Virus record (IMG/VR): IMGVR_UViG_3300028025_003938
Location: 1-52,238 of that record
Length of the DNA: 52,238 nt
Origin: a virus
Lineage: Duplodnaviria; Caudoviricetes
Strand: one strand, 5' to 3'
Numbering within the stretch: position 1 is the stretch's first letter; the number at the start of each line of letters is the position of its first letter. Made by a program: the position numbers and the translations under genes. Positions 1-24,946 of the stretch are shown here, piece after piece. Under the pieces are notes generated by a model that saw only the letters and a list, made by a program, of their open reading frames with translations, was not told the origin of the DNA and made no database searches.

Positions 1-4
1 AATA

Positions 5-5915: not shown

Positions 5916-5971
5916 GTTGTTCCCACTTTTCTTGGTTGGTAGTTGAATTATTACTTTGATTGTTTCCATTT

Positions 5972-6577: not shown

Positions 6578-6607
6578 GGTTTTCTCCTGTTGTTTGTTTG
6601 TTGGTTG

Positions 6608-6976: not shown

Positions 6977-7056
6977 GGTTTTATCGTAACCCGGTTAAAG
7001 GGTGGTTGTACACTCTTTCTTTAACTTTTCCCAAAATATGCCTCTGATCTCGTGTT
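6977..7056 (-). promoter_or_regulatory. Promoter cassette copy A (drives island A)
   Basis: Minus strand: AACACGAGATCAG-N4-ATATTTTGG...TGTACA-N18-TACGAT-N6-ATG; homologous to copies B, C, D. Confidence 0.85.
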
Positions 7057-7205
7057 TTGCCCGAAAAGCCGTACCGGAATAAGGCAGATATCCGGCGAAA
7101 GTCACACCGGGTTGACGACGATCGGACGAGTTATTACAAGCCAAACCGGATCCGGTGAAGTATCTTCAAAGCGGAAGTGCGCAGCGTCGCCCGATGGGAG
7201 AAACG

Positions 7206-8393: not shown

Positions 8394-8560
8394 AACTTAT
8401 TAAAGAATTGCACGCGCAAGTATGGACTCTTTGCGGAGTCGCCTTAGTTTTGATAACACTTAGCGGAGCGACACTCTCAAAAGCCGCTTGGACATTCGGC
8501 GTAAGCCTCGTCCTACATTTCGCCGGCGCTTTGCTTACAAAAGATAACCACTCGGAGTGA
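8390..8560 (+). CDS. 56 aa two-TM membrane protein (not in the ORF track)
   Basis: GTGA overlap, GGAG RBS; MKLIKELHAQVWTLCGVALVLITLSGATLSKAAWTFGVSLVLHFAGALLTKDNHSE. Confidence 0.7.
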   Translation: MKLIKELHAQVWTLCGVALVLITLSGATLSKAAWTFGVSLVLHFAGALLTKDNHSE

Positions 8561-8589
8561 CCCACAAGTTGTCCACAGTTTGTTAGGCT
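8558..8589 (+). promoter_or_regulatory. DnaA-box-like pair next to an extended -10 promoter
   Basis: TGACCCACA (8558-8566), TTGTCCACA (8569-8577, actinobacterial DnaA consensus), TGtTAGGCT (8581-8589). Confidence 0.45.
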
Positions 8590-8616
8590 AAACCGAACTT
8601 GACAGATCGGACCGTT

Positions 8617-8865
8617 ATGCCTGACGACAAACGTCTATCTTCTGCAATCAATAATTACGGCAAGTCACACGGCGCTCGTGTCTGTGGTGTTCAGCGTGCG
8701 CTTGACGAACTTACCGGAACCGATGTTGAAGACTTGACCGAAGCATTGAAAGATCGTTCAATTACTAATAAGTCAATTTCGCTTGCGTTAGCCGATAGAG
8801 ATATTGATCTCAGTATTGATGTGCTTAAGCGACACCGCCGAGGAGAATGTGCTTGTGAGTCTTAA
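8617..8865 (+). CDS. Small HTH or Zn-binding protein
   Basis: N-terminal CGV and C-terminal RHRRGECAC; precedes the phosphoesterase. Confidence 0.7.
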   Translation: MPDDKRLSSAINNYGKSHGARVCGVQRALDELTGTDVEDLTEALKDRSITNKSISLALADRDIDLSIDVLKRHRRGECACES

Positions 8866-10006
8866 AGACGAAATAGAACGAGAGAACGCATCTACTTCAA
8901 AGAAACTTTCTCTTGGTCGTATCGCAGAACTATTAGACCGGAACGGTATTGACATCGACGAGATCGGTGCAATCAAACGAGTCTCGCTATATCAAGCCGT
9001 TACGAAAGATACAGAAACCGGAGAAGCATCGGTTCACGATCTTACGGGTATTCAGTTTTCTCCGAAATGGGAGACAGGTCCTGAGTGGCCAGTAATCCAG
9101 CCGGGACCGGCAATTAAGATCTCTGCACCAAAGGCAACCAAAACTCGTTCTGGCTGGCCCGTCGCCGTCGTCCTACCGGATATTCAATGCGGCTACTTCA
9201 CCGCCGCAGACGGCTCATTAGAAGCGATACACGACGAACGAGCAATTAGTGTTGCGTTATCTATTTTAAGTGACGTTAATCCTGATCTCGTCGTTCTTGT
9301 CGGCGACAATCTTGACTTTGCCGAACTCGGAAAGTACATCGTCACCAAGGCTTATCAACAAACAACACAAGCGACTATTGACAGAGCAACAAAACTCGCT
9401 GCCGAAATACGATCAGCCGCACCAAACGCAAAGATTATCTGGCTGGCAGGCAACCACGAAGAACGCTTACCGAAGTTCTTGTTGCAAAACGCCGCTGCTG
9501 CTTTTGGATTAAAGCGAGGCAACCTTCCCGATTCATGGCCAGTGATGAGTGTTCCGTATCTATGCCGACTTGACGAAGTCGATATTGAGTATCGCCCCGG
9601 TTATCCGGCATCGTCGGTATGGATTACCGAACGCTTAAGAGTTATCCACGGAGATCGTGTTGCAAGCGGCGGTTCAACGGCACACAAGTATCTCAGTCAA
9701 GAGAAGTCGTCGGTTATCTACGGTCATATTCATCGGCGAGAATGGGCAGAACGTACTCGTGAAGATCACGACGGACCGAAGACGGTTCTAGCGGCTAGCC
9801 CCGGTTGTTTGTGTCGGGTTGACGGCGCTGTTCCAAGTACACGAGGCGGCACCGACTTAGAGGGAAGACCGCTTACACGATACGAAGATTGGCAACAAGG
9901 TTTAGCCGTTATTCCGTACGACTTAGAAACAGGTAACTTCTGCTATGAACAGGTAGCGATTCACGACGGGTGGGCGATGTACAGAGGCAAGGAATACAAA
10001 GCATGA
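8855..10006 (+). CDS. Calcineurin-like metallophosphoesterase
   Basis: Motifs PDIQ, GDNLD, GNHE, IHGD, GHIH; AGGAGA RBS. Confidence 0.88.
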   Translation: MSLKDEIERENASTSKKLSLGRIAELLDRNGIDIDEIGAIKRVSLYQAVTKDTETGEASVHDLTGIQFSPKWETGPEWPVIQPGPAIKISAPKATKTRSGWPVAVVLPDIQCGYFTAADGSLEAIHDERAISVALSILSDVNPDLVVLVGDNLDFAELGKYIVTKAYQQTTQATIDRATKLAAEIRSAAPNAKIIWLAGNHEERLPKFLLQNAAAAFGLKRGNLPDSWPVMSVPYLCRLDEVDIEYRPGYPASSVWITERLRVIHGDRVASGGSTAHKYLSQEKSSVIYGHIHRREWAERTREDHDGPKTVLAASPGCLCRVDGAVPSTRGGTDLEGRPLTRYEDWQQGLAVIPYDLETGNFCYEQVAIHDGWAMYRGKEYKA

Positions 10007-10281
10007 AACACCAACTGATTCAGGTGACATGGCACGACGCTCACGCAGTAGCCGAAACGTGGACGACCAGAGACGACGTTGACGACGAGCCGTGCGTTGT
10101 TACTTCAATTGGTTATTTAATCGCCGGCGTAAAAGCCAATCACGTTGTTATTTCTCAATCGCTAATTGTTGGCGAAAGCAATCATATGGATCATGTAATT
10201 GCGATACCAAACGGAATGATTAAGCGTATTGACCGATTAAAAGTTTCTACGCTGCTACCGCTTGAAAGCGTTGAAGAGTAA
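10003..10281 (+). CDS. Hypothetical protein (VxWxDAH type)
   Basis: ATGA overlap; QVTWHDAH..VTSIGYL..IAIPNGMI pattern. Confidence 0.75.
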   Translation: MKHQLIQVTWHDAHAVAETWTTRDDVDDEPCVVTSIGYLIAGVKANHVVISQSLIVGESNHMDHVIAIPNGMIKRIDRLKVSTLLPLESVEE

Positions 10282-10578
10282 TTACCGGAAGAGTTCTTCG
10301 TCAGAGATCATGTCTCGGCGTGGTGGTTGTGGTTTGGACTTGAGTCCGTTGCTGGCAAGAACGCCGCTTAACGCACCACTCAAAAACAATGTGATCGGAA
10401 TAAGCACACCGTCAAGAAACGCTTTGTCGTTTGGTGATTGAGTCATCGGTTGCGTAACGAATACCAAAGCCCAAAGCACTGCAAACACGATCATCACAAA
10501 CGTTGCACAAAGCGCAAGCCCAACGGCCAGCACGAGCCGTGCGTGTATTTCTTCCGGTGCGTAACGTTTACGGCTCAT
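10282..10578 (-). CDS. Two-TM membrane protein
   Basis: MSRKRYAPEEIHARLVLAVG...; two hydrophobic helices; coupled to the upstream lipoprotein. Confidence 0.8.
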   Translation of the reverse strand: MSRKRYAPEEIHARLVLAVGLALCATFVMIVFAVLWALVFVTQPMTQSPNDKAFLDGVLIPITLFLSGALSGVLASNGLKSKPQPPRRDMISDEELFR

Positions 10579-10769
10579 TTGGATTCTCCCCATACAAGAG
10601 TTTCGGAACAGTTACCTGTTGGTTCACAGATTGGCGGCTTGCACTCTGCTAGTTCCCAATTCGCCGGGTCTTGACAGGTGTAACGATATTTGCCGTCGTA
10701 TCCGCACGACGAAGCAATAGCAGTTAAAACAACAACTGCAACGCAAGAAGAAACAAGTCGCATCGGCAT
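10575..10769 (-). CDS. Small Cys-rich lipoprotein
   Basis: Signal with lipobox-like ASSC; YRYTCQDPANW..ECKPPICEPTGNC; leaderless promoter TGaTATGTT-N6-ATG. Confidence 0.75.
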   Translation of the reverse strand: MPMRLVSSCVAVVVLTAIASSCGYDGKYRYTCQDPANWELAECKPPICEPTGNCSETLVWGESK

Positions 10770-10862
10770 AAAGCCAACATATCAGTCACGAGATTATTTC
10801 TATTGGAAGTTTCTTATTAACCTACAACGGCTCTGAGAACGATGTGTTTAGGATTAGCAGCG

Positions 10863-11507
10863 ATGGCACGTTCAACGAAACTCGCAGACCTCATGGTTAA
10901 AGAGACAAGTGGCGTGGATCACCCTGCTCATCTTCACGAAGGCTGGCTAGTCATGAAGTCGGAAGACCTCTCTGCTACTCTTGAAGAACTTACTGATGTT
11001 AATAAGGAGACGAATATGGATCTGGAAATTACTCAACCCGAATCTTTGGAAGTTGAAAAGTCTTCCGATACTGAAGACATTCGCAAAGAATTGTTTGACT
11101 TGCGTAAGCAGTTAGACGACGCTCGTAAAGAAACAGAAATTATGAAGAGCGTTCGCTTGTTAGAAAAGGCTACTGAGACCGCTAACGGCTGGTCAATTCT
11201 GCCCGAACTAAACGCCGCTGAGTTTGCTCCGGTCTTGTGTTCACTACGAGAAGAACTTCCGCTTGAGGCTTTGATTATCGAAAAAGTTCTTGAGGCTTCA
11301 GCCGTGGCGCTGCGTGAATCCGGTTTGTTAAAAGAACTCGGAACCACCACACCGGCAAACGATGCAGACGCATGGTCAACGATCTCCGCACAAGCAAACC
11401 AACTTGTCAGCGAAGGACGAGCACCAACGTTCGCAAAAGCAGTAACAATTGTTGCTGGCGCAAACAAAGATCTATACAACCAATACCTGATTGAGAAAGG
11501 CCGCTGA
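10863..11507 (+). CDS. Scaffolding protein with an N-terminal protease fragment
   Basis: Upstream of capsid genes; acidic coiled coil; ETSGVDHPAH..GWLVMKS resembles the XkdF/HK97-protease E-x-S-x-VD-x-P-A-N strand. Confidence 0.75.
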   Translation: MARSTKLADLMVKETSGVDHPAHLHEGWLVMKSEDLSATLEELTDVNKETNMDLEITQPESLEVEKSSDTEDIRKELFDLRKQLDDARKETEIMKSVRLLEKATETANGWSILPELNAAEFAPVLCSLREELPLEALIIEKVLEASAVALRESGLLKELGTTTPANDADAWSTISAQANQLVSEGRAPTFAKAVTIVAGANKDLYNQYLIEKGR

Positions 11508-11509
11508 AC

Positions 11510-11893
11510 ATGGCTTACGAAGGCGCACAAATTAAACTCGGCAATCTTGTTGCCGCTGCTGACTTATCTGCAAAGCAGTTTTACTTCGTCAAGTTGGCTT
11601 CTGCCACGACTGTGAACGTTTGCTCAGGTGTCACTGACAAGCCGATCGGCGTATTGCAGAACACCCCAAAGAGTGGTCAATCCGCTGAGATCGTTCTGTT
11701 CGGTATCTCGAAGGTGAGTTCAGATGGAACGACCGCCGCTGGCGATCTTCTCGGAACTTCCGCTGACGGTCAAGCCGCTGTCTACACCTCAAGCGACACC
11801 ACCAAGTTCGTCTGTGGTCAAGCGATTGAAGCCGGCGCTGCTGGCAACGTCGTCACTGCTTTTATCAACATCACCAACTCACGCTTCGTCTGA
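11510..11893 (+). CDS. Capsid cement/decoration protein (DUF2190-like)
   Basis: AAADLSAKQFYFVK, PIGVLQNTPKSGQ, GQAIEAGAAG; between scaffold and MCP. Confidence 0.8.
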   Translation: MAYEGAQIKLGNLVAAADLSAKQFYFVKLASATTVNVCSGVTDKPIGVLQNTPKSGQSAEIVLFGISKVSSDGTTAAGDLLGTSADGQAAVYTSSDTTKFVCGQAIEAGAAGNVVTAFINITNSRFV

Positions 11894-11913
11894 TCTACTA
11901 AGGAGATACAGAA

Positions 11914-12864
11914 ATGCCTCAGCCCACACAGAACCAAGTCCATATTGATGCGGTGCTCACTAACCTGAGCGTCGCATACATGAACGAAGTTGACAACTTT
12001 GTTGCTTCAAAAGTGTTCCCAACTGTTTCGGTGAACAAGCAATCGGACTTGTACTTCACATACTCGCAAGCAGACTTCTACCGTGATCAGGCGCAATATC
12101 GTGCTGACGGTACTGAGTCGGCTGGTAGCGGTTACTCGTTGTCAACCGGTACTTACTCGTCAAGTGTTTGGGCTTTGCACAAAGATATTGGCGATCAGGT
12201 TCGTGCGAATAGCGACTCGCCACTTGATCCGGACATGGACGCCACCAAGTTCCTCGCTCATCAGATGATGATTCGTCAAGAGCGTGACTGGGCTAGCAAG
12301 TTCTTCACCACTTCGGTGTGGGGAACCGACGCTACGCCGTCAACCTTGTGGGACGCATCGGGTTCAGATCCGATCGGTGACATTCAGACCGGTGTTAATA
12401 CCGTTCTGAGCAACACCGGATACTTGCCTAACACGCTCGTGCTTTCGTACGCAGCATACAAGACTCTCCGTAACCACTCAGACTTCGTTGATCGTTACAA
12501 GTACACCTCAGCCGACAGCATCACGCCTGAACTCATCGGCAAGGTTCTTGACGTTCCTCGTGTCATGGTTATGAAGGGCGTCTACAACTCAGCGCAGGAA
12601 GGTGCTTCGGCAACCTACGCTCAGATGGGCGACAAGGACGCACTCTTGTGCTACGTCGCACCGGCTGCCGGAATCATGACTGCTTCTGCTGGATACAACT
12701 TCGTTTGGAACGGCGTTGGCGGCGGACTCGGAACTTCAACCGCTGTGAGCCGTTTCCGTATGGATCACTTGCGTGCTGATCGTCTTGAAATTGAATCCGC
12801 TTGGGACTTCAAGGCTGTTGGTACACCGCTCGGTTACTTCTTCAGCAACTGCGTCACGGCGTAA
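11914..12864 (+). CDS. Major capsid protein
   Basis: 316 aa; HIDAVLTNLSVAY..FVASKVFP..; PNTLVLS; AAGGAG RBS; position. Confidence 0.9.
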   Translation: MPQPTQNQVHIDAVLTNLSVAYMNEVDNFVASKVFPTVSVNKQSDLYFTYSQADFYRDQAQYRADGTESAGSGYSLSTGTYSSSVWALHKDIGDQVRANSDSPLDPDMDATKFLAHQMMIRQERDWASKFFTTSVWGTDATPSTLWDASGSDPIGDIQTGVNTVLSNTGYLPNTLVLSYAAYKTLRNHSDFVDRYKYTSADSITPELIGKVLDVPRVMVMKGVYNSAQEGASATYAQMGDKDALLCYVAPAAGIMTASAGYNFVWNGVGGGLGTSTAVSRFRMDHLRADRLEIESAWDFKAVGTPLGYFFSNCVTA

Positions 12865-12879
12865 TTAGGAGACTGAACA

Positions 12880-13305
12880 ATGGCTCTCAATCGACTCACT
12901 CGTGGTACTGCAATCGTCGGTGCTCTTGACGTAACAGGTCCAGCACGTTTGCGTGGCACTGCAAGCGTCAAGCGTACTGCGGCAACTATTGCTGACGGTG
13001 CGTCAATGACTGCCACTGCGGCTCATATCGTTACCAACACTCTCGTCACTGCAACGCCGACGACTGCTCGTGCTGTAACAACAGCAACTGGTGCGGAGAT
13101 TATTGCTTTGCTCGCTGGTGAACAAGTTGGCGACTGCACAGAGTTTACTATCGTGAACCTTGCTGCTTCGGCTGCGACTATCACGCTGACCGCTGGTGCT
13201 TCCGGCGTGACGCTTGTTGGTTTGGCAACCGTTCCTGCTGCAACTTCGGGTACTTGGTTGGTTCGTTACGACTCAGCATCGGGCGTTACTTTCTACCGCA
13301 AGTAA
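12880..13305 (+). CDS. Putative virion decoration protein
   Basis: Ala/Thr-rich beta protein directly after the MCP, with AGGAG RBS. Confidence 0.7.
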   Translation: MALNRLTRGTAIVGALDVTGPARLRGTASVKRTAATIADGASMTATAAHIVTNTLVTATPTTARAVTTATGAEIIALLAGEQVGDCTEFTIVNLAASAATITLTAGASGVTLVGLATVPAATSGTWLVRYDSASGVTFYRK

Positions 13306-13324
13306 TAAAACTTTTGGTACGGCA

Positions 13325-13370
13325 CTAGAAGCCGGTTCTGGTGTGGTGCTCACATCAGGACCGGCTTTAG
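13325..13370 (+). terminator. Long stem-loop after the capsid genes (terminator or mRNA stabiliser)
   Basis: GAAGCCGGTTCTGGTGTG-GTGCT-CACATCAGGACCGGCTTT, about 18 bp with G-U pairs. Confidence 0.7.
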
Positions 13371-13389
13371 TCGTTATTGGAGATAACTC

Positions 13390-13692
13390 ATGAACAACAC
13401 AAGCAATACAAACCCGGTTCTGTCTGTGAAACTTACAGGCTCAGATCAAGTGATCGCTAATGCGAAAGTATTTCTCGGCGCAACATTAATTAATGAATCG
13501 GGTGCGAGCGCAAGATTCCATGTTCACAACGGCTCGTCTGCTGATGCCGCTAATCCGATTATCGCAGGTTTGTCTCAAGCGACATTGACCTATGGCAACG
13601 TGTGGTACGGACCGAATGGTATTGCTTGCCCGAACGGTGTCTTCGTTGACGCTGTAGCAGGTACCTTTAGTGGATCAGTTTTTTACCGCTGA
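13390..13692 (+). CDS. Hypothetical virion protein
   Basis: 100 aa, GGAG RBS, in the head operon. Confidence 0.7.
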   Translation: MNNTSNTNPVLSVKLTGSDQVIANAKVFLGATLINESGASARFHVHNGSSADAANPIIAGLSQATLTYGNVWYGPNGIACPNGVFVDAVAGTFSGSVFYR

Positions 13693-13698
13693 TATCTG

Positions 13699-14190
13699 AT
13701 GACATGGACTTACGGCGGCGACCCGTCTGCTAACGCTAAAGACGCAATCCGGTTTCTTATCGGCGACACAGATACAACGGATCAACTCTTAAGCAACGAA
13801 GAGATTCTGTGGGTAAACACTGAGGCTTCCGGTACTACGACTGGCACGAACGCTTTGTACGACGCTGCGTATCGTTGCTGTTTAACTATCGCATCTAAGT
13901 TGGCTCGTCTTGCCGATAAGCAGATCGGGGACTTGAATGTGAAGTTGTCGCAGAAAGCACAAGGCTATTTAACTCAGGCTGCACAATTTAACAAGATGGC
14001 ACAAGTTCAGAACTTCGTACCAATTCCTTACGCCGGTGGAATCTCTATCAGCGATAAAGAAATTGACGAAGATAACACTGATTCGGTTAGACCATATTTC
14101 AGTTCAGGTCAATTCCAAAACGTCGCCGATGGTGGTGGAATCCAAGAACAAACCGGAGTTCAATACTTTGGACAGGGCGCTGACACATGA
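13699..14190 (+). CDS. Head-tail adaptor/connector
   Basis: MTWTY..DAIRFLIGDTD..QLLSNEEI pattern. Confidence 0.8.
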   Translation: MTWTYGGDPSANAKDAIRFLIGDTDTTDQLLSNEEILWVNTEASGTTTGTNALYDAAYRCCLTIASKLARLADKQIGDLNVKLSQKAQGYLTQAAQFNKMAQVQNFVPIPYAGGISISDKEIDEDNTDSVRPYFSSGQFQNVADGGGIQEQTGVQYFGQGADT

Positions 14191-14537
14191 CGGCCATAGA
14201 TATGTTTATGACCGAACTTTTGCAACTTGCGACGCAGACTGTAACTATTACGCCTCGCTCGTCTATTAACTCGTACGGCGAAGTCTTGAACGCTGGAAGT
14301 GGTACGACTTACAAGGCTTACGTACAGAAAATATCTGCGAGCCAGCGTAATAGCACTTCAGATCAAACGGCTGTGGAATACATCGCTTATATTCCGTCAA
14401 CGTCGTATGCGCCGTCTACTGATGATGTTCTTACCGTTAGCGGCGTGACCAGAGTGATCGTTGAAGTCGATGTTCGGTCAGACGAGTTCGGGCAACAATG
14501 TGTCGTGCTCGCTTTAGGTGAACCGAGACGCAACTAA
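14187..14537 (+). CDS. Head closure/stopper protein
   Basis: QTVTI..NSYGE..; size and synteny. Confidence 0.7.
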   Translation: MTAIDMFMTELLQLATQTVTITPRSSINSYGEVLNAGSGTTYKAYVQKISASQRNSTSDQTAVEYIAYIPSTSYAPSTDDVLTVSGVTRVIVEVDVRSDEFGQQCVVLALGEPRRN

Positions 14538-15019
14538 TGGCTAAGCCTGTGACTATCAAAATTAAGTCTCAGAATATGGCTGAGATTCGTCGTGGCTTAT
14601 TGGCTGATGCTGAAGGTGTTTCTCTTGCGCTGCGTGCCGGATTAAAGAACATGGCTGAAGATATCAGTAACGAAAGCGAACAACTCGTTCCGGTTGACGA
14701 AGGTATTCTGCGTACTAGCAGAAGCATTGACGAAACGAACATAGGAACGACGTACCAGATTGAAGTCGGCTATGGAAATAGTGCGACGCCTTACGCTCTC
14801 GTGCAGCATGAACGCCTTGACTTCTGGCACCCACCAAAACCACCAGCAAAAAGCAAAGTCGGTGGGCGTCAAGGAACCGGACCCGGTATTGATCCAACAA
14901 CAGGGCGAGGACCGAAATATCTTGAACGCCCGTTCAAAAAATATACGGCGAACTTTGCCGAAACTTTAACGGCGTATGTTCGTAAGCATTACCAACTTGG
15001 AACAGGTCGTGGCTCGTGA
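14537..15019 (+). CDS. HK97 gp10-like neck/tail-completion protein
   Basis: VPVDEGILRTS, PYALVQHE, KYLERP. Confidence 0.85.
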   Translation: MAKPVTIKIKSQNMAEIRRGLLADAEGVSLALRAGLKNMAEDISNESEQLVPVDEGILRTSRSIDETNIGTTYQIEVGYGNSATPYALVQHERLDFWHPPKPPAKSKVGGRQGTGPGIDPTTGRGPKYLERPFKKYTANFAETLTAYVRKHYQLGTGRGS

Positions 15020-15411
15020 GCACCCTCGTAGATATCGCAACGTATCTTGATTCACAACAAGCGTCTCTCACGCTTGGCACTAATTTGTTTCTTGGCCGTA
15101 TGCCCGATTCACCGGATACTTGTGTTGCGCTTTACGAGTACGGCGGTTCCGCACCGGATAACACGATGGGCACCGGACTTCCGGTATTACAGAATCCAAG
15201 CGTACAGATCAACGTGCGTGCTGCGTTATATGCGACGGCTGAAAGTTTAATTAATTCTTGTTGGGGAACTCTTGAAGGTATTATCAACACCTCGTTATCG
15301 GGCACAAGATATAACCGTATGACAGCGATTCAATCGCCGTTTGTTCTTGAACGAGACAGCCAAGATCGTGTTATTTTCGTACAGAACTTTAATGTCACTA
15401 GAGAGTTCTGA
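15016..15411 (+). CDS. Tail terminator (minor capsid family)
   Basis: LGTNLFLGRMPDSPD, PSVQINVR, QSP..LERD..R..FVQNF. Confidence 0.8.
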   Translation: MSTLVDIATYLDSQQASLTLGTNLFLGRMPDSPDTCVALYEYGGSAPDNTMGTGLPVLQNPSVQINVRAALYATAESLINSCWGTLEGIINTSLSGTRYNRMTAIQSPFVLERDSQDRVIFVQNFNVTREF

Positions 15412-15578
15412 TGAGCGCCGATCCGTATGCGGAGACGCGACTTGTACCGGAGCAAGAACGTTCTACACGCACGAGCGTACGCTGCGGTAATTGTGGAAAG
15501 TTGCTTGCTGAGATGGTTACTTCGCCGTGGCGTATTCGTTGCCCACGCTGCAAAGAGATCAACGAGTCAGCGAATTAA
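15411..15578 (+). CDS. Mu Com-like zinc-finger translational regulator, 55 aa (not in the ORF track)
   Basis: TGATG overlap; MSADPYAETRLVPEQERSTRTSVRCGNCGKLLAEMVTSPWRIRCPRCKEINESAN carries the Com signature RCxxCxKLL...IxCPRCKxxN. Confidence 0.85.
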   Translation: MSADPYAETRLVPEQERSTRTSVRCGNCGKLLAEMVTSPWRIRCPRCKEINESAN

Positions 15579-16150
15579 TTGCAAGACATTGACCACGGCT
15601 TCCAACCGCATTGACCGTTTTCTTCTCTAGACGAAAACAGTTTGTAAGCAAACCAAAGATTATTGCGAGCATCAAACATATCGTCAGGGTGCTTCAATCC
15701 GAAGTCCGATAACCACGATGAATGTATTTGATTAATCTGGCTCAAGCCTGCATCGGCTCCGTTCCATGCGTCAGTCGTACAACGACTTTCACGAAATAAG
15801 ATCCGGCTGAGTTTTGGCCAGTGTTCTTCTAGCCAACCGACTTCAAGAGCGAGGTCGTGCCATTCGCCGCATTGACCATGCAACATGCGCTGCTCGTCAA
15901 TGTAATCAAGCGGATCAGACTGCAACGGAACTTCTGTTGTCGTCGTGCTCGTTGCTTCTACGAGATCTTCTTGTAAAGCCTCGTGAGCGTTTAATTCCGG
16001 TTGTGTTGTCGTGGATATTATTGTGGTCGTCGGTTGCGTAATAATCACAGTTTGAAAAGACGGGCGAGTTTCAGAAGAAGTATTTGTGCCGGTCCCACAA
16101 GACGAGATTACCAACAACGTCAAGACCGCTGATGCGGTGAGTCGTTTCAT
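15575..16150 (-). CDS. Lipoprotein with C-terminal lysozyme-like/SLT transglycosylase domain
   Basis: Lipobox-like ISSC, Thr-rich linker, RESRC..DAGLSQIN..W.PW; leaderless TAAAGT-N6-ATG. Confidence 0.82.
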   Translation of the reverse strand: MKRLTASAVLTLLVISSCGTGTNTSSETRPSFQTVIITQPTTTIISTTTQPELNAHEALQEDLVEATSTTTTEVPLQSDPLDYIDEQRMLHGQCGEWHDLALEVGWLEEHWPKLSRILFRESRCTTDAWNGADAGLSQINQIHSSWLSDFGLKHPDDMFDARNNLWFAYKLFSSREENGQCGWKPWSMSCN

Positions 16151-16208
16151 TGTTCTACTTTACTTGGTCGGGTGAATAAAGTGTTGTCGCAATCGGATTC
16201 TCCAATTG

Positions 16209-16430
16209 TTATAGGTAGCCGCTTATTTTATTTTCGTACCGGATTAAGAGTCCGGTGTTGATCGCAGATAAAACAGCAGGGATAGCCAAAACATTTTGAG
16301 TGTGAAAATAAATAATGCTTAACCAAAAGATGATTATGTTTGACCATGTAACGACCGATAACCATCGTCCTACGGAAACGGCGTTCTGGATCAGTTTACG
16401 GCGCTTGAATGTTGTTTGCTTGTGTGTCAT
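16209..16430 (-). CDS. Small membrane protein (island B)
   Basis: Two hydrophobic stretches; ATGA coupling. Confidence 0.65.
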   Translation of the reverse strand: MTHKQTTFKRRKLIQNAVSVGRWLSVVTWSNIIIFWLSIIYFHTQNVLAIPAVLSAINTGLLIRYENKISGYL

Positions 16431-16750
16431 AGCGAATCCTGTTCTACGTCGTCTAAATAGGTTTTAAGCGCCTTTGTGGCGTCGTTGAGAGTTGCGTATG
16501 CACGAAAGTCTCCGATAGTAATAATTCGTCCACGATATTCCGCACGAATAGAGAACCGGTGTTCGTCGGAATCTAATCCGGTTTCGCTGGTAATGAAGTA
16601 CCAAAAGTTTCCATTCAGTACAGGGTTTGATTCAAGTCGTGTATTAAAAAACTTCATCGCTGCTGGCGAGAACCAGTGTTCGCCGATATCAAGATTCCGT
16701 TGAACGATAGAGACCATATTTTCGTCGGGCTTGATTATTCGTTTCCTCAT
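16427..16750 (-). CDS. Hypothetical protein (island B)
   Basis: GEHWFSPAAMKFFNTR..YFITSE pattern seen in phage early proteins. Confidence 0.75.
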   Translation of the reverse strand: MRKRIIKPDENMVSIVQRNLDIGEHWFSPAAMKFFNTRLESNPVLNGNFWYFITSETGLDSDEHRFSIRAEYRGRIITIGDFRAYATLNDATKALKTYLDDVEQDSL

Positions 16751-16914
16751 TTTTTTCCTCCGGTCGTTTCTAAATGAATTACTAAATGGTGTAAAGCGGT
16801 AATCGTTTCGTCAATATAACGAAGAGTGGTTTCGTCTTTAGCGTGCGGAGTGTCGTACCAACCTCGTTCTGTACGAAGTACCAACAGCGTTTGTTCTAGG
16901 TCCGAAAGTTTCAT
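16747..16914 (-). CDS. Hypothetical protein (island B)
   Basis: MKLSDLEQ... start follows the upstream stop; coupled. Confidence 0.6.
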   Translation of the reverse strand: MKLSDLEQTLLVLRTERGWYDTPHAKDETTLRYIDETITALHHLVIHLETTGGKK

Positions 16915-16915
16915 T

Positions 16916-17185
16916 TCAAACCTCGCAGTCGTGGCCGTTGTAAAACTCGTCGGCTTCTGTTTCGTCGTTGAGATTGAACGTGCGATCACATTCACGGCAC
17001 TGTTGCAAATACCACGGCGCTACTTTTCGGGTGTAGTCGTCTAGTGCTTCTCGTGTTCCACAGTCGGAACAGATCATCGTCGTGTTATCGATTCTTGAAA
17101 GCGCACCGGGATATTTCCCTCGTTCAAGATTGTTTGGGATACCGCCCAAGCATTTCGGGCAAGTGTGTTCTTTAACGTCATTCAT
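16916..17185 (-). CDS. Zinc-finger protein (island B)
   Basis: CPKC..YPGALSRIDN..ICSDCG..CREC..HDC; AACAGGAGA leader. Confidence 0.8.
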   Translation of the reverse strand: MNDVKEHTCPKCLGGIPNNLERGKYPGALSRIDNTTMICSDCGTREALDDYTRKVAPWYLQQCRECDRTFNLNDETEADEFYNGHDCEV

Positions 17186-17215
17186 GGTTTTCTCCTGTTT
17201 GTTGTTTGATGATTA

Positions 17216-17383
17216 TTAAGAGCGGAACATTATTTCTAGTTCGTGGTGGTCGTCTTGACATTCGGAACAAGTGCCGTCGGGGTTCATAACCGATTCGTCG
17301 TAATGGATATCACAGACTTTGTCGTGAACTTTGTGGGCTCGTTCGGACGATGCTGCTAGTCGTGAAGTGTTTGTTGTTTTCAT
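17216..17383 (-). CDS. 55 aa hypothetical protein with C/H motif (not in the ORF track)
   Basis: MKTTNTSRLAASSERAHKVHDKVCDIHYDESVMNPDGTCSECQDDHHELEIMFRS; fills a gap in the operon. Confidence 0.6.
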   Translation of the reverse strand: MKTTNTSRLAASSERAHKVHDKVCDIHYDESVMNPDGTCSECQDDHHELEIMFRS

Positions 17384-17385
17384 GA

Positions 17386-17622
17386 TCACATCAAGTTTCC
17401 GTCAACGACTGACATACCTCGTGCGAGGCGTGCGTCAATCTCATTTAGTGCTCGTTTGACATTCATCGGCTGTGTCGTTTGAGCGAACGAGTACCCGCAA
17501 CGGCAACCGTAAACAACTGATCGCTCACTTACCAAAAGAAGTTTGACGCCTTTGTAGGTGAAGCCGATGAGTGAACCGTCTCGTCCGAAGCGTTCTGTAA
17601 AGTCTTCGTTCATGTCAGGCAC
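17386..17622 (-). CDS. Hypothetical protein (island B)
   Basis: 78 aa, coupled. Confidence 0.6.
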   Translation of the reverse strand: MPDMNEDFTERFGRDGSLIGFTYKGVKLLLVSERSVVYGCRCGYSFAQTTQPMNVKRALNEIDARLARGMSVVDGNLM

Positions 17623-17839
17623 CGATCTTCATCGTGTACAAGGTTGCTTCTTGAAGAGTCGTAAACGGCTTTGCGCTGCGATCTTGGCTGACGTTGCGCT
17701 TGAGTGTCCCATGTTCGTAAACGTAATAGAACGTCATTCCAAGCGACTTCGCTTTCAGAATCCGGTAGTCGCCGACGACATAGAAACCGGGACGAACTTT
17801 AATAACTCTTGAGGGTGTTGTGTTGTTCATGTTGTTCAC
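17615..17839 (-). CDS. Hypothetical protein (island B)
   Basis: 74 aa, coupled. Confidence 0.65.
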   Translation of the reverse strand: MNNMNNTTPSRVIKVRPGFYVVGDYRILKAKSLGMTFYYVYEHGTLKRNVSQDRSAKPFTTLQEATLYTMKIGA

Positions 17840-18081
17840 ACTTCCTCTCGGCGAGCCATGACGGCGTTCGTGCGTCGGGCTTGAGTATTAAGTGCGACGT
17901 TCAAAAGTGCACGAGCCTGAACGAACTCGGACTCGGTCTTAGCAAGTCGGATCTCGTGGCGAAGGTGGCGAACGATAACTGTCAAGTGGTTTCCGGTTTC
18001 TTCGGAACCGAGGCGACCTTTGCCGATCTCGTAGATCGCTGATCGTAATTCTTCTAATCTTTCTTCGGATTGCTTGCTCAT
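17836..18081 (-). CDS. Hypothetical protein, first gene of island B
   Basis: GAAAGGG RBS after promoter cassette B. Confidence 0.75.
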   Translation of the reverse strand: MSKQSEERLEELRSAIYEIGKGRLGSEETGNHLTVIVRHLRHEIRLAKTESEFVQARALLNVALNTQARRTNAVMARREEV

Positions 18082-18100
18082 GACTTTTCCCTTTCGTTCA

Positions 18101-18196
18101 GTACGCTCTTGCGTACGAAAACGATCGTAGCAGGTCTAAGGGTACTTGTACACGCTTTCTTTAAGTTTTTCCAAAATATGCTTCTGATCTCGTGTT
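18101..18196 (-). promoter_or_regulatory. Promoter cassette copy B (drives island B)
   Basis: AACACGAGATCAG..ATATTTTGGAAAAACTTAAAGAAAG..TGTACA-N17-TACGAT..GTACGC-AAGA-GCGTAC hairpin. Confidence 0.88.
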
Positions 18197-18367
18197 TTGT
18201 ACCGGAATTAAACCGGATTCGCCTAATAAACCCGGTATCGGCGTTAGATCCGGTGTACGCTCGCCGTTCCCGAAGATCGTCTATTTCATCGCCTTAAGGA
18301 TTAGAAACGACCACAGGCGATTCTAGACGCCCCTGATCTGAACCTACGCTAGATAAACCGATGCTTC

Positions 18368-18465
18368 TGTTATCCTGAAGTCAAGTCGTGCGCTCGTCGC
18401 CTTAGGTGTCCTTGTGGCCGTCTTGATTGACTGTCGCTCGGCGTTATCTCAGATGAGGAAACTTT
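18368..18465 (+). promoter_or_regulatory. Tail-operon promoter and structured 5' leader with GTGNCC-like repeats (putative Com-binding RNA)
   Basis: Extended -10 TGtTATCCT (18368-18376); AGTCAAG/CTTGATT stem enclosing GTGCGC, GTCGCC, GTGTCC, GTGGCC. Confidence 0.6.
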
Positions 18466-18675
18466 ATGCGATTCAGAGTCACAGGCGGCGAAGACGGCAG
18501 CGCAGGAATTGACGTTGCTGGTAAACGCTATGAACCGGGTCAAGAAGTAGAACTCACCGCTAAAGATTCTGAGTGGCTCGTTGAACAGGGTTACGTTGAA
18601 GCATTAGACGCAGCAACAAAAAAAACCAAAGCCGTAGTCGTTGAAGAAGTTTTAACTGAATCCGAGGTTGTCTGA
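18466..18675 (+). CDS. Small tail-operon protein
   Basis: GAGG RBS; GKRYEPGQEVEL..WLVEQGYVE pattern typical just before tail-tube genes. Confidence 0.75.
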   Translation: MRFRVTGGEDGSAGIDVAGKRYEPGQEVELTAKDSEWLVEQGYVEALDAATKKTKAVVVEEVLTESEVV

Positions 18676-19430
18676 TGCCTACATTTATTCACGGTAAGTC
18701 AACTGGCGTATTCTTAGACGCTTACGATCTGTCAACCTATTTCAACTCTGCTGATTACGCATCTTCAATTGATACCGCTGAAACAACTTCCTTCGGTTCT
18801 TCTGCTAAGTCTTATATAACCGGATTAAACGATGCGACGCTAAGTCTTTCCGGTATGTACTCGCAAGACGCTGGCGGTTCTGACGTCGTTCTAGAAACTC
18901 TTCTCGGTCAAGCAACAAGCCCAGCCGTTACCGTCGTATTCCAAACCGGAACTATAGGTAATCGTTGCATCGTCGGTCAAGCCCACGAAACTTCATACTC
19001 AATCTCAAACCCCGTAGCCGATGTATCAACCGTTACTGCGGACTTCAACGCCACAGCCGGCGCTGTCGCCGATCAGGTTTACGGTATTCGTGGTGGTGTC
19101 ATTCTCACTACGGGTGGCTCTATCGCTTTCGGTTCTCTCGGTAACCTCGCAAGCGTTGACAACGGTGCATCGTCAGCGGCTGGTGCGCTCGCAACACTTC
19201 ACGTAACAACGAACTCTATTGCTGGTGGTGCTACGACCATTAAGGTTCAGCACTCTACGAACAACAGCACTTGGGCAGACTTGATTACATTTACCGCAGT
19301 CGCGGCAGCAACGACAGTCGGCGTATCAAAAGCAAGCACAGGTACAGTCAATCGTTACGTCCGAGTTACAGCAAGCACAGCAGGTTCTTCAGGTTCAATC
19401 ACTTTCAACGTCGGGTTCGCCCGCAACTAA
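18675..19430 (+). CDS. Tail tube protein paralogue 1 with a C-terminal extra beta domain
   Basis: MPTFIHGKST, DTAETTSFGSSAKSYITGLNDAT, TSYSISNPV. Confidence 0.8.
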   Translation: MPTFIHGKSTGVFLDAYDLSTYFNSADYASSIDTAETTSFGSSAKSYITGLNDATLSLSGMYSQDAGGSDVVLETLLGQATSPAVTVVFQTGTIGNRCIVGQAHETSYSISNPVADVSTVTADFNATAGAVADQVYGIRGGVILTTGGSIAFGSLGNLASVDNGASSAAGALATLHVTTNSIAGGATTIKVQHSTNNSTWADLITFTAVAAATTVGVSKASTGTVNRYVRVTASTAGSSGSITFNVGFARN

Positions 19431-19442
19431 TAGGAGATAGTC

Positions 19443-19853
19443 ATGCCCACATTCGTTCACGGTAAGTCAACTAACTTCACTCTTGACGACACCGCTGGTT
19501 CCGTTCGGGATATCAGCAACACTGTCACGAGCGTCGACTTCCCCGAAACTCTTGATACCGCTGAGACAACTGCTTTCGGTTCTTCGGCTAAGTCATATAT
19601 CGTCGGTCTCACCGATGCGACGATCAGCGTTTCCGGTATTTGGGACGCAACCGTAGACGGCTACATTGCCGGAGGCGCAGAGCCTGCTTCACGCTCGTTC
19701 GTATTCGGACCTGCCGGCTCAACCGCTGGCAATGTCAAGTACACCGGAGAAGCAATCGTTACTTCGTACTCAATCTCAAACCCGGTTGGCGACGTCGTAA
19801 CTTATAGCCTTGACCTTCAGGTTACTGGCTCAATCACCCGTACAACCTACTAA
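19443..19853 (+). CDS. Major tail tube protein (paralogue 2)
   Basis: MPTFVHGKST, DTAETTAFGSSAKSYIVGLTDAT, KYTGEAIVTSYSISNPVGDVVTYS. Confidence 0.85.
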   Translation: MPTFVHGKSTNFTLDDTAGSVRDISNTVTSVDFPETLDTAETTAFGSSAKSYIVGLTDATISVSGIWDATVDGYIAGGAEPASRSFVFGPAGSTAGNVKYTGEAIVTSYSISNPVGDVVTYSLDLQVTGSITRTTY

Positions 19854-19886
19854 ACCTAAAAACAACTACATAGGAGTGTGACCCAA

Positions 19887-20300
19887 GTGTCCATCAAAGC
19901 CAAGATCAGATTAGCCCAAGACCTTGATCGTGAAATTATTGCGATTCCTGAATGGGACGTATCCATTGAAGTACGTTCTATGACTGTGCGTCAGCGAGCA
20001 TCGTTTGTTGCTGCGAGCCAAGACACCTCAGACAACGGCGACAAGATCGAAAACGTTTACGGCCAGATTCTTGTTACCTGCTGTCTTGACCCTGAAGACG
20101 GTTCTCCGGTATTTACCGAAGACGATCTTTCATGGCTCATGACCGAGAAGTCCGGTGCGGTAATTGACCGACTCGTAACAAGTTGTCTTGAAGTTTCAGG
20201 TTTGAAAGAGAAAGCAATTGATGAAGCGGGAAAGTCTTACTCGGCTTCCCCGACCGATTCGGTAGAAGCCAACCTGAACGCAGAGCGTACTTCCATCTAG
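19887..20300 (+). CDS. Tail assembly chaperone (gpG-like)
   Basis: Between tube and tape measure; IPEW.V.IEVRSMT, G.PVFT.DD; GTG at 19887 is 10 nt from AGGAG. Confidence 0.85.
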   Translation: MSIKAKIRLAQDLDREIIAIPEWDVSIEVRSMTVRQRASFVAASQDTSDNGDKIENVYGQILVTCCLDPEDGSPVFTEDDLSWLMTEKSGAVIDRLVTSCLEVSGLKEKAIDEAGKSYSASPTDSVEANLNAERTSI

Positions 20301-20443
20301 CACGTGAACTGGGCATGACAGTCGGCGAACTTATGAACACGATGACGAGTTCAGAGTTCGTTGAATGGTGTGCGTTGTTCAAGATTGAAGCAAGCGAACG
20401 AGAACAACAACAACAGCGAGCAAAGTCAAGATCGAGAAGATAA
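20228..20443 (+). CDS. gpGT-like extension made by -1 frameshift at GGGAAAG
   Basis: G GGA AAG at 20228-20234 (the lambda G-T slippery heptamer); -1 frame reads ..YFHLARELGMTVGELMNTMTSSEFVEWCALF.. Confidence 0.85.
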   Translation, partial: GKVLLGFPDRFGRSQPERRAYFHLARELGMTVGELMNTMTSSEFVEWCALFKIEASEREQQQQRAKSRSRR

Positions 20444-23400: not shown

Positions 23401-24946
23401 GATTGGTACGACGAGCAGTAGTTCAAATAATCGTGGTGGCGGTGGCGGTTCATCTAAAGCCGATAAACAAAACGACTTTGCTTGGGTTGACAATTGGGTT
23501 ACTGATATCGCAGACTATGCAAACAATTTGATATCAACCGACTTCCGTGACACTCTCTTATCGGGTTCAGCGAAAGATATTGGCAAAGCATTAGAAGCAA
23601 CACTTGATGAGGCTGTACGTCTAGGTCTTGACAAGTTGCCTCAATTCGCCGGATTCGTAGACAAAATTAAAGAGCAATTCAATCGTCTTGGTGATATCGC
23701 TAATCTAAGAGATTCGCTGACTACTCAACTTGACGACGCTACGAAGTCTTTAGACAAACTGAAGTCGGCGTTAGACGATACTGCCCAAGCCGCAGGCAAG
23801 TTCGATTCTACGATTACCGGAAGTAAAGCGCCGTCAAACACACTTCTAGATCAGGCGTTAGCAGCACAGTCAAAATACGACGAACTGTTTTCAAAGAGTG
23901 AATCGCTTAAGCAGCAACAAAGCGATCTTGCGAAGAGCGTTTCTTCGTCGGTTCTTCAACCGATTACCGCACGCAACCCTCTTGGTAATACACGCAAACT
24001 ATTACAGCAAGCGACAACGTTCCGTGACAATCTTTCAGCGTTACGAGATAAAGGTTTTGGTCCGGACATTATTGGGCAAGTCGCTCAAGCAGGAATCCTT
24101 GAAGGCAACAAGATCGCCAAAAGTCTTCTTAACTTGTCGTCCGGTGATATCGCCGAACTAACACAAATGCGAGCAGACATTTCTGCTATTGGCACGCAAG
24201 CAGGCGAGATCGCTGGCAGCGTCGTCTTCGGTGCTGATATTGCTAACGCAAATAGTGAACTTGATACACAACGTTCACTTGTACGTTCTCTATTCACCGA
24301 CGCTGTCGCTCAAGCACAAACACAATTTGATCAGCAGAAAACTCTCGTTGACGGCCTTGAAGCAAGTCTCGCCACAACGAACACTCAGATGGCTGATCTT
24401 GTGTACGCAATTCAAGTTGATCTATACAACACGATGTTCGGATTCTTGGCTGGATTCAACGGCGGTATCGACAAACTCAAAGGCGCACCGACTAACGCAA
24501 ACACGCCGACAGTATCTATGCCAACAGCACCAGCAGTGTCTGCACCGGCAATGCCCGATCTACCTATTGGTATCGACTTCGGTGCTATCGGTAGAGAGAT
24601 GAACAAGAAGATCGCAACGTTCAAGCCGGGTCAGAAGACAGACTTCAACGACGGTCCGTTGCCGAACGGCGGTGCAATCGTAAACGGCTACTACTTGCCA
24701 CCGGGTCTTGACTTCAGTGGATTCCATGCTGACGGTGGTGTGACTACTCGTGCGTCACTCGGTGTCATTGGAGAGAACGGGCCTGAAGCGATCATTCCTC
24801 TGTCACGTATGGGCGACTTCGGTGGTGGCGACACGTACATCACTGTGAATGTTTCAGGCACTGTTACGAGTGAACGTGATCTCGTTGAGCAGATTCGTCA
24901 AGGTCTTATTCGTTCACAAAAGAGTGGCAAAGCGTTGATCATATGA
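20447..24946 (+). CDS. Tape measure protein (TP901-type core)
   Basis: 1499 aa, Ala-rich; TP901-like repeats; C-terminal ADGGV..GENGPEAIIPL. Confidence 0.95.
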   Translation: MAQATVGTVNVVLGLDSKPLVAGVKAAQKTVETLGEQFDKIGQDASAGAAKAEKAVQKVAQETKSSLSKVEAAYQQASYGVDEFSLAYHEMARKVANDTKKINSATDSAARVGNKFTDMGSKMTSVGTKMSMALTAPMLLAGGQAIKTANDFEFSMQSIVAMVGLSEDKVADMGIAAREMAKQYGGSAVQAADALYFVASAGIDGATAMQVLEQSLKASAIGMGDTAIIADTVSSALNAYGIENLSAAQATDLMVAAVREGKMEADALAGALPRVLPIASAMGVSFEEVGASFAAMSRNGTDASEAATQIRGILSSLLNPAKQAEEQLNALGLSGAGLRKEIREKGLLSALSTLTTAFGDNEEAQGIVFGNVRALTGVMSLFGAATESTTKIFANLTDNTGDADKAFQAMSSTGAFKMKQVMAEMKDAFISLGQVLVPIVVPALKMLATAFEKIMTAINALPNFMKTIIVVLAGLVAAGGPLLIMLGSLAKAWAALKAAMATQAFTSAIAQFAAAGPIIAGVAIAVVAIAAAWYAFSQDAKEAKERQERLTEAFKSAGEPTAVLHDQVKGLVEEYVKLQNALPATANAADTVATAFATAESVTLGINDEISTLGLTMEQIGAAVSTGTNAFDDLGDVLLGLSYDQLVQTGDAAISVQDALLTAANAGTPFASAMLEAVKAGEMTGVQVKDLLFDLHDLSNAFDDNREAIDDENKKLLQSADTALYFSSILGTEMYNAILGSGAAMADAAGRTDIYTFTLQELQNKAVSVTAAQNAFLGGLAGVFPQVVTTAGVKVKELAAIYGELAKESDKGTVSQDAFLLKIGLLDEMLANELVVSTQDAIDKNIKLAETLGDSEGTTLDLSSAYRNQAKEITTLLLKTAQYGGSNKDAMQSVALMVLRLGDAARAAGYTDEEVRGLIDSMGILDGIEAEFGVNFAINTADLDKQIANIESAIGNMLWAAGAATGDTTMKLSKTLADLKGIRSAIGTTSSSSNNRGGGGGSSKADKQNDFAWVDNWVTDIADYANNLISTDFRDTLLSGSAKDIGKALEATLDEAVRLGLDKLPQFAGFVDKIKEQFNRLGDIANLRDSLTTQLDDATKSLDKLKSALDDTAQAAGKFDSTITGSKAPSNTLLDQALAAQSKYDELFSKSESLKQQQSDLAKSVSSSVLQPITARNPLGNTRKLLQQATTFRDNLSALRDKGFGPDIIGQVAQAGILEGNKIAKSLLNLSSGDIAELTQMRADISAIGTQAGEIAGSVVFGADIANANSELDTQRSLVRSLFTDAVAQAQTQFDQQKTLVDGLEASLATTNTQMADLVYAIQVDLYNTMFGFLAGFNGGIDKLKGAPTNANTPTVSMPTAPAVSAPAMPDLPIGIDFGAIGREMNKKIATFKPGQKTDFNDGPLPNGGAIVNGYYLPPGLDFSGFHADGGVTTRASLGVIGENGPEAIIPLSRMGDFGGGDTYITVNVSGTVTSERDLVEQIRQGLIRSQKSGKALII

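Follow-up and report, generated by a model that had tools for sequence, protein, structure and literature searches.

Covarying mini-hairpins at virion-gene control points of a siphophage family and their probable reader, a Com-like zinc-ribbon protein

The Com protein has so far been a one-gene curiosity, known from phage Mu mom and from a few cargo genes that lie directly after a com-like gene. In the account of Nowacka et al. 2019, Mu Com consists of an N-terminal zinc finger and a disordered C-terminal tail, and it binds CC(N)2-3GAG in a six-residue hairpin loop beside the structure that holds the GUG start codon of mom (PMC6483171). Systematic evolution of ligands by exponential enrichment (SELEX) with a Com zinc finger is reported there to give GAG(N)2CC, mostly as two copies flanking a variable stem of 3-4 nt with a C-G closing pair (PMC6483171). 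Elsewhere, com-like genes have been described before cargo, as in the FluMu pair HI1522.1-HI1523 (methyltransferase) and, in Pseudomonas, com-llpA (bacteriocin), tailocin cargo and lysis genes (PMC3299994, PMC6240691). Here we describe a com-like gene (15411-15578) and four short RNA hairpins in a stretch of viral DNA of 52,238 bases, the window, which is the whole of the IMG/VR virus record IMGVR_UViG_3300028025_003938 and is rated 100% complete. An earlier note on this DNA had proposed that the Com-like protein switches the translation of tail genes through tandem GTGNCC elements; its observation was confirmed and its interpretation was partly supported, the core being right and some details wrong. 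The best explanation, which we consider probable on comparative sequence grounds, is that the Com-like protein binds the hairpins in trans and alters the translation initiation of virion genes.

The open reading frame (ORF) at 15411-15578 on the + strand encodes 55 amino acids and ends the head/neck operon. Its recognition in the earlier note as an unannotated Com-like gene was borne out by the Pfam and PHROG matches and by alignment to Mu Com. It matched PF10122 Zn_ribbon_Com with 27.1 bits (gathering cut-off 22.9, E 2.8e-6), as well as phrog_6417 ("translational regulator") and phrog_13819 ("gpCom control of modification", E 1.4e-5). A profile of 16 Com-like sequences aligned with Mu Com in hhalign with a probability of 95.9% (E 5.8e-9, 28 columns), and the zinc ribbon was 54% identical to Mu Com over the aligned part. 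This C-terminal ribbon (CxxC-N15-CxxC, residues 22-49 of 55) stands behind a conserved N-terminal DPYAE...TR extension, and its cysteines C25, C28, C44 and C47 were invariant in all 16 aligned homologues. The AF2 model was zinc-ribbon-like, with a mean predicted local distance difference test score (pLDDT) of 77.6 and values of 87-93 in the beta-hairpin zinc-ribbon region. A Foldseek search of this model against the PDB gave no match at E<=0.001, only generic zinc ribbons, and a sequence search of the PDB gave no solved Com-like chain, only zinc-ribbon rows at chance level (E>=0.015). Judged from its sequence, the ORF is a Com-family protein.

A tail-terminator search yielded 20 related loci (numbered with L below), and a search with the small tube protein yielded 274 relatives, of which 80 were taken for comparison; at the DNA level, the search for near or distant relatives in the phage collection gave nothing beyond a 68-base match. 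A profile built from homologues detected com in 57 of the 99 related loci. In L001-L014, and in most of the com-bearing loci of L022-L100, the gene stands immediately 3' of the tail terminator. A single Com-like protein searched against genome contigs gave no match, and a small Com alignment led to the contigs L106 and L107.

All four copies of the RNA element lie on the sense strand, at three places (7177; 18388 and 18406; 19878-19892). The element reads 5'-GU[s]C-N2-3-GU[s']C-3', with a 3-4 bp stem of free sequence and a loop C-N2-3-G-U, and it is conserved at the 5' GU, at the C...GU of the loop and at the 3' C. The outermost G and C can pair as well, around a bulged U, and do so in the fold of the chaperone site. 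In the leader of the tail operon, hairpin 1 (GU[GCG]C-UC-GU[CGC]C, 18388-18401) is formed by GTGCGC at 18388-18393 and GTCGCC at 18396-18401, arms that are complementary across leaders, and hairpin 2 (GU[GUC]C-UU-GU[GGC]C, 18406-18419) is formed by GTGTCC at 18406-18411 and GTGGCC at 18414-18419 with one G-U wobble pair. Over the start of the tail assembly chaperone gene, the Shine-Dalgarno sequence AGGAG (19872-19876) is followed by GU[GAC]C-CAA-GU[GUC]C (GTGACC-CAA-GTGTCC, 19878-19892; together 19872-19892), and the chaperone start codon GUG (19887-19889) lies within the loop and closing pair of this hairpin. The last copy, GU[GCG]C-AGC-GU[CGC]C (7177-7191), was found by a general hairpin scan in the leader of the operon 7206-15578, which holds com. 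It follows the leftward gene island A, lies 4 nt before the Shine-Dalgarno sequence GGGAG (7196-7200) and 14 nt before the ATG at 7206, and is kept in L001, L002 and L006.

The hexamers, the arms of an enclosing stem (AGTCAAG, 18379-18385; CTTGATT, 18422-18428) and the ribosome-binding site were all where the earlier note had placed them, and its second tandem does stand between the ribosome-binding site and the chaperone gene and cover the start, which is the second GTG at 19887. The tandem repeat did not survive as the unit: each pair of hexamers is a covarying mini-hairpin, GTGCGC/GTCGCC being one and GTGTCC/GTGGCC a second. The enclosing stem, which is present in the window, was rejected as an element; it was not kept in the closest relatives, L002 and L007, and was absent from the minimum-energy fold, and its 5' arm, which starts 3 nt past a -10-like hexamer, probably straddles the predicted transcription start. 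The putative regulon drawn in the note, of tail genes, is too narrow: the hairpin at 7177 leads the head operon of com itself.

The general hairpin scan of the window gave four units on the + strand (7177, 18388, 18406, 19878) and two on the - strand, each of the latter with two G-U pairs, while the null mean was 1.4 per strand. A further unit, close to the canonical form but with an additional U in its second arm (GTGACC-CACAA-GTTGTCC), was also seen at 8557-8579, in the gap between the ORFs 7206-8393 and 8804-10006. Rfam 15 covariance models gave no match at E<=1 on either strand of 15300-20400. GTGNCC occurred 23 times on the + and 16 times on the - strand of the window, and the tandem GTGNCC-N2-3-GTGNCC only at 18406 and 19878, both on the + strand. 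The rarity expected by the earlier note was thus found for this pattern but did not single it out, since 123 other one-N hexamer patterns per strand also reached at least two tandems; taken by itself, the tandem count is weak evidence, although GTGNCC was the rarest hexamer among the patterns that did so. Two tandems per genome are unremarkable, and the case therefore rests on comparison with relatives.

In these relatives, the elements were conserved at both places despite diverged flanking sequence. All of the 73 loci (56/56 unique) had at least one unit within 150 nt upstream of the DUF7210 gene, which opens the tail operon, and 67 of the 73 had at least two. At the chaperone start, a Shine-Dalgarno sequence followed by the canonical GTGNCC-N2-3-GTGNCC was found in 72 of 81 loci (44/49 unique). 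The spacer of the chaperone hairpin varied freely, being TAA in L096 and L099 and 2 nt long in L050, L052 and L055, which means that the first hexamer is non-coding and that the chaperone starts at the GTG of the second hexamer (19887). The motif was kept in genomes of 42% to 65% G+C, and the extra units in relatives were all located in 5' untranslated regions (UTRs) or over start codons.

Comparison of the arms showed that they change together. With the triplets left free in its selection, the first leader unit was fully complementary in 42/42 cases in the 3-bp register (GCG/CGC, GAC/GUC, GUC/GAC, GCC/GGC, GCU/AGC, GGG/CCC) and in 4/4 in the 4-bp register (CUCC/GGAG, CUUA/UAAG, CGCU/AGCG), with nine distinct stem sequences in all. 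In arrays, units 1-2 and 3-4 always carried a complementary N (A/T, T/A, C/G, G/C or T/G). The covariation check that the earlier note had suggested for the leaders of relatives came out clearly: in a 30-row alignment, 90/90 cells were paired, with a covariation score of 0.726 versus 0.141 for shuffled rows (0/500 shuffles as high), and slid-register controls reached at most 0.09. Spacers ranged from 2 to 6 nt and G-U wobble variants occurred. In loci that total 786,853 bases and include many redundant ones, 226 units lay on the sense (+) strand and 28 on the other (-). A reversed-pattern control gave 0-1 match per genome versus 1-6 (both strands) in 9 of 10 records; one half-complete record had none. 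The G-U variants, the strand bias and the variable spacers imply an RNA rather than a DNA element. The GTGNCC elements named in the earlier note are thereby upheld as conserved, strand-specific and acting at the level of RNA, and our confidence that the hairpins are functional RNA elements, as the comparative data indicate, is very high.

Variants of the element were also seen. In L047-L049, three of the nine loci without the canonical form, the chaperone start carries GTGTCC-N11-GTGACC, complementary arms 11 nt apart with an ATG start inside the long loop. At L105:1535 (= L047:2853), a second Shine-Dalgarno sequence with hairpin and GTG start precedes a 98-amino-acid ORF upstream of the terminator gene.

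The presence of the hairpins followed the presence of com, as the earlier note had expected for com-bearing relatives, and com-less relatives were without them. The com-bearing loci L001-L014 had hairpins wherever the relevant region was covered, and no unit was found in any of the six com-less terminator relatives (L015-L020). In the complete relatives G006, G007, G009, G010 and G011, com was accompanied by 2-6 tandem-pattern matches (both strands, non-complementary pairs counted). Microcystis phage Mae-JY09, Microbacterium phage ValentiniPuff and Roseobacter phage CRP-811, which encode a homologous tube protein, had an ATG chaperone start and no hairpin, and searches of these three for com gave none at E<=1.

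The same combination occurs in cultured phages. A Com-like ORF was detected by tblastn in 13 Arthrobacter phage records, and in 9 of the 13 rows no feature was annotated under the match, including Waltz, Shrooms and both records each of Salgado, LiSara and Wheelbite. Laroye, Waltz, Ottawa and Kovu were looked at one by one. Laroye has com (ORF at 24684-24809), and its site GTGTCC-TCA-GTGACC at 35777 closes with the start annotated for gp66 (35786), a gene that lies after the second tube gene and before the tape measure gene. Waltz has com and a site at 34014 with the spacer TAA, its annotated chaperone start being 34023. In Ottawa, com is present and the sole genome-wide match (16673) is the annotated chaperone start; the annotation there begins at the first GTG (16673), while the comparative data favour the second. 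Kovu has com by profile (E 1.5e-12) and GTGTCC-CC-GTGACC at the chaperone start. The other GTGNCC pairs of Laroye and Waltz were mostly non-complementary; among those located, two in Laroye lie inside the terminase gene (7948) and inside gene 27 (20025). All were set aside as background of a 65% G+C genome.

Two contigs found through com itself extend the association. In L106 (65% G+C), com, a terminator-like hairpin, a -10-like hexamer, two hairpins and a DUF7210 gene lie within ~150 nt. In L107, a region of a Dehalococcoidia metagenome-assembled genome, com is the only feature common with the window, and three GUGSCC hairpins lie on the strand of com within 20 kb and none on the other strand; by a rough hand estimate, the expectation by chance is ~0.03. 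The L107 hairpins (2227-2312, 5483-5530, 2529-2543) overlap the 5' arms of strong terminator-like hairpins with U-tracts, with folds of -57.3 kcal/mol (z -8.3) and -28.8 kcal/mol (z -5.1), and the first lies 7 nt after a promoter, TTGACA-N17-TACACT, upstream of an excisionase-like gene (judged from the ORF alone). This overlap suggests antitermination by the Com-like protein. A pattern scan of viral contigs with GTGCCCNNNGTGGCCNNGTGNCC gave 10 matches, none with com or tail-gene matches; 9 of the 10 lay in DNA of ~70% G+C and one in 60%, and most had one conserved flank in common, which was judged coding by eye.

In the window, the next + strand gene 3' of com begins 2.9 kb on (18466), past the leftward island B. 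Among relatives the distance from com to the tail leader varies from <0.1 kb to ~10 kb, so any action of Com must be in trans, as the earlier note had proposed. In the 34-kb record L079 (genome G001), where the tail operon directly follows the portal and Mu-F-like genes, com (28695-28826) was seen ~12 kb from the tail leader, with the leader hairpins kept and the chaperone hairpin not.

Both leaders have a similar layout. Promoter-like pairs, which are inferred, precede the hairpin at 7177 (TACAAG-N20-TATCTT, 7135-7166, + strand) and tail-leader hairpin 1 (TACGCT-N20-TATCCT, 18345-18376, + strand), and the layout TAC..-N20-TANNNT-N10-11-hairpin occurs only twice in the window, once per leader. 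Of 38 anchored leaders, almost all had a TANNNT hexamer 7-14 nt ahead of hairpin 1. Given these -10-like hexamers and the spacing at which transcription usually starts after a -10 box, the leader hairpins are predicted to stand at the very 5' end of the messages. In the minimum-energy fold of the 7177 leader, the hairpin nucleotides pair with the ribosome-binding site and the AUG (z -1.64, 10/200 shuffles as good), and in the tail leader UCCUU pairs with GAGGA (z -0.03). The fold of the chaperone region (minimum energy -4.6 kcal/mol, z +0.99) holds the hairpin itself (-3.2 kcal/mol) and no competing structure. An alternative pairing from RNAalifold, CGCC/GGUG, was rejected; it was invariant, showed no covariation and was not kept in other subfamilies.

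These results suggest the following mechanism. The Com-like protein would be made from the head/neck operon and would act in trans, binding the hairpins in the way that Mu Com recognises CC(N)2-3GAG in the hairpin loop of mom mRNA, and this binding would alter translation initiation. At the chaperone, it would most simply occlude the start codon in the loop, which suggests that chaperone synthesis would be repressed or kept low with respect to the tube protein. In both leaders, the hairpin would compete with pairings of the ribosome-binding site, and binding may activate translation, as in Mu. The site at 7177 would allow feedback on the operon of com itself. That Com is the reader of the hairpins and acts on translation is, to judge from the comparisons, somewhat favoured over its denial.

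Three other explanations have to be weighed against this mechanism. Chance, or a by-product of coding constraints, is an exceedingly improbable source of the motif: two tandems of a rare hexamer in 52 kb are indeed not significant over all patterns (123 per strand with at least two), but the first hexamer is non-coding, with a spacer of TAA or 2 nt in relatives, the motif also occurs in non-coding leaders and is conserved from 42% to 65% G+C, the reversed pattern is matched 0-1 time per genome, and the leader covariation and the counts at both sites contradict such an origin. The hexamers might instead be DNA operators for a transcription factor, possibly the zinc-ribbon protein at late promoters. 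The motif is made of direct repeats and the leader hairpins lie where operators typically do, their start being 7-14 nt past a -10-like hexamer, yet the arms covary as antiparallel complements that include G-U pairs, which are not complementary in DNA, and the units favour the sense strand (226 vs 28). The spacers of 2-6 nt would break helical phase, and the chaperone site is intra-operon, between Shine-Dalgarno sequence and start codon, with no conserved -10. The L107 hairpins overlap the arms of intrinsic terminators, and Mu Com is reported as an RNA binder (PMC6483171). Together these points leave a DNA operator very improbable.

The hairpins may be functional and yet be read by a host factor, another phage protein or the ribosome, or act alone as 5' stabilisers or processing sites, com being merely co-inherited. 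Covariation and conservation prove an RNA element and not its binder, most of the co-occurrence lies within one family, and the loop carries GU and not the GA of the Mu-type site. Stem-loops at message 5' ends often act on stability, and the leader hairpins are at the predicted 5' ends. Against a reader other than Com, the architecture is close to the SELEX-derived Com site, a stem of 3 bp is too weak to work unaided by a protein, the three com-less phages with homologous tube genes are without the chaperone hairpin, and L107 shares com alone with the window and yet has three hairpins on the strand of com. We regard this explanation as unlikely, though a serious one, and on balance prefer Com as the reader.

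Several observations weigh against Com as the reader and against the mechanism proposed for it. The link between Com and the hairpins is wholly comparative, and most genomes with com and hairpins belong to one phage family, so that the co-occurrence is partly inherited and L107 is the only clearly independent case. L077, L079, L091, L093, L094 and L098 are without the chaperone hairpin and have plain ATG/GTG starts, L079 (genome G001) among them although com is present there, and the Laroye tail leader showed no canonical hairpin. The hairpins are thermodynamically weak (-3.2 kcal/mol), no folded segment of the window stood out against shuffles, and the transcription starts are predicted. RNAalifold on 25 leaders of the main family gave no conserved translation-inhibition structure or long-range pairing, and Mu-like activation at the leaders is possible but draws no support from conserved pairings. 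Compared with the Mu site, the loop here has GU and not GA (CC(N)2-3GUG versus CC(N)2-3GAG), and the closing pair is not always C-G. Finally, com does not lie beside a target gene, as it does in every described case, but closes the head/neck operon.

The window is a complete genome of a siphophage that belongs to a large family including the cultured Cluster AL Arthrobacter phages. According to Klyczek et al. 2017, the virion genes of Cluster AL are interrupted by large insertions in an unusual layout, and the word "zinc" is absent from the paper (PMC5513430). The virion genes of the window run rightward and are broken by two leftward islands, A (~4558-6976) and B (15575-18081, - strand), of which the latter separates com from the tail leader and contains SLT-like and DUF7447 matches in its ORFs. 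The head/neck operon extends from ~7206 to 15578, its last genes being the tail terminator (15016-15411, +; PF12691, E 2.7e-20), whose stop codon shares one base with the com start, and com. The tail operon begins at 18466 and encodes in order the DUF7210 protein, two major tail proteins, the tail assembly chaperone and a tape measure of 1499 amino acids. The DUF7210 gene (18466-18675, +; 69 amino acids, PF23843, E 7.3e-9) also sits downstream of the leader hairpins in relatives, and the chaperone gene (19887-20300, +) matches phrog_344 (E 6.4e-19) and is 34% identical to the annotated Ottawa chaperone (E 4e-17). The two tube genes (18675-19430 and 19443-19853, +) match the major tail protein family phrog_9522 (E 3.5e-53) and PF06199 (E 9.5e-8). 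They are paralogues with the common N-terminus MPTF(I/V)HGKST, the longer having a C-terminal extension with a weak F5/8 type C match. The Arthrobacter phages keep the pair, and in their records both genes bear the annotation major tail protein.

A repeat of 77-114 nt was present in four copies, at 6983-7059 (+), 18087-18199 (+), 39242-39129 (-) and 32406-32310 (-), which are 81-86% identical to the copy at 18087-18199 by BLAST. It holds the inverted repeat GTACGCTCTTGCGTAC and a long conserved block, and its copies in islands A and B are directed towards the leftward genes, those at 32428 and 39248 towards rightward operons. This repeat is probably a promoter and 5' UTR module common to non-structural genes. 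Upstream of both late leaders (7060-7160 and 18200-18260) there are many short CCGG-containing words (accggaat, atccgg, aaccggat), which might be sites for a DNA-binding regulator.

Text searches of the literature found no description of a Com/hairpin system of this kind. From the comparison of these genomes, we think it reasonably likely that the system is a variant of Com acting in trans on several virion-gene sites. The RNA operator proposed for it is precisely defined and covarying, and it recurs at several points of virion-gene control across hundreds of uncultured phages as well as in cultured Arthrobacter phages. Were the link with Com to hold, tail assembly genes would gain a further, post-transcriptional level of control, with the chaperone start codon inside the operator, and the link may help to explain how structural modules interrupted by insertion islands, as in the Cluster AL layout, are coordinated (PMC5513430). 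A broader idea, tentative and in our view rather unlikely, is that Com-family zinc ribbons are general trans-acting RNA-operator proteins of phages and mobile elements, one protein reading a modular GU-loop mini-hairpin at varied control points. If this were true, the control points would include mRNA 5' ends, start codons and the 5' arm of intrinsic terminators (L107), and there would be a post-transcriptional late-gene switch by which phages with island-split virion modules could coordinate head, tail and chaperone synthesis. For annotation, the comparison fixes the chaperone start codon and brings to light a com-like ORF for which several deposited genomes list no feature.

Among actinobacteriophages, the start-associated sequence (SAS) and extended SAS (ESAS) of Cluster K mycobacteriophages are reportedly short conserved motifs repeated beside several translation starts and proposed to act on translation, and the hairpins resemble them in being a repeated start-adjacent motif. 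SAS/ESAS differ in sequence and are not known to form a covarying hairpin or to have had a dedicated RNA-binding protein proposed for them. The FluMu and Pseudomonas com-like genes encode PF10122 proteins, as here, that are presumed to control the translation of a neighbour; in the accounts cited they lie immediately upstream of one accessory gene and the RNA site is not defined, whereas the candidate targets here are distant structural operons marked by a covarying RNA motif (PMC3299994, PMC6240691). The closest likeness is to Mu Com and mom. Both systems have a small zinc-ribbon protein with four cysteines from the same Pfam family and a short hairpin with a 5-6 nt loop C-N2-3-G-x and a variable stem of 3-4 bp, often in two copies (PMC6483171). 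The description of Mu Com in the earlier note, as a reader of short repeated motifs near the start, is to be amended accordingly, since the published motif is that of a hairpin loop rather than of plain repeats (PMC6483171). As in mom, the site is at or just upstream of the translation initiation region, and the chaperone target starts with GUG. The hexamer is GUGNCC here and GAG(N)2CC in Mu, and the zinc ribbon is C-terminal behind an N-terminal extension here and N-terminal in Mu. In the Mu-type system, com directly precedes one target gene and overlaps it, and Com activates translation by opening an inhibitory stem over the Shine-Dalgarno sequence and the start codon. The present system further differs from Mu in having three target loci with four hairpins, all on virion-gene messages, and in placing the chaperone start codon inside the loop, which suggests occlusion of the start rather than the unfolding of an inhibitory structure.

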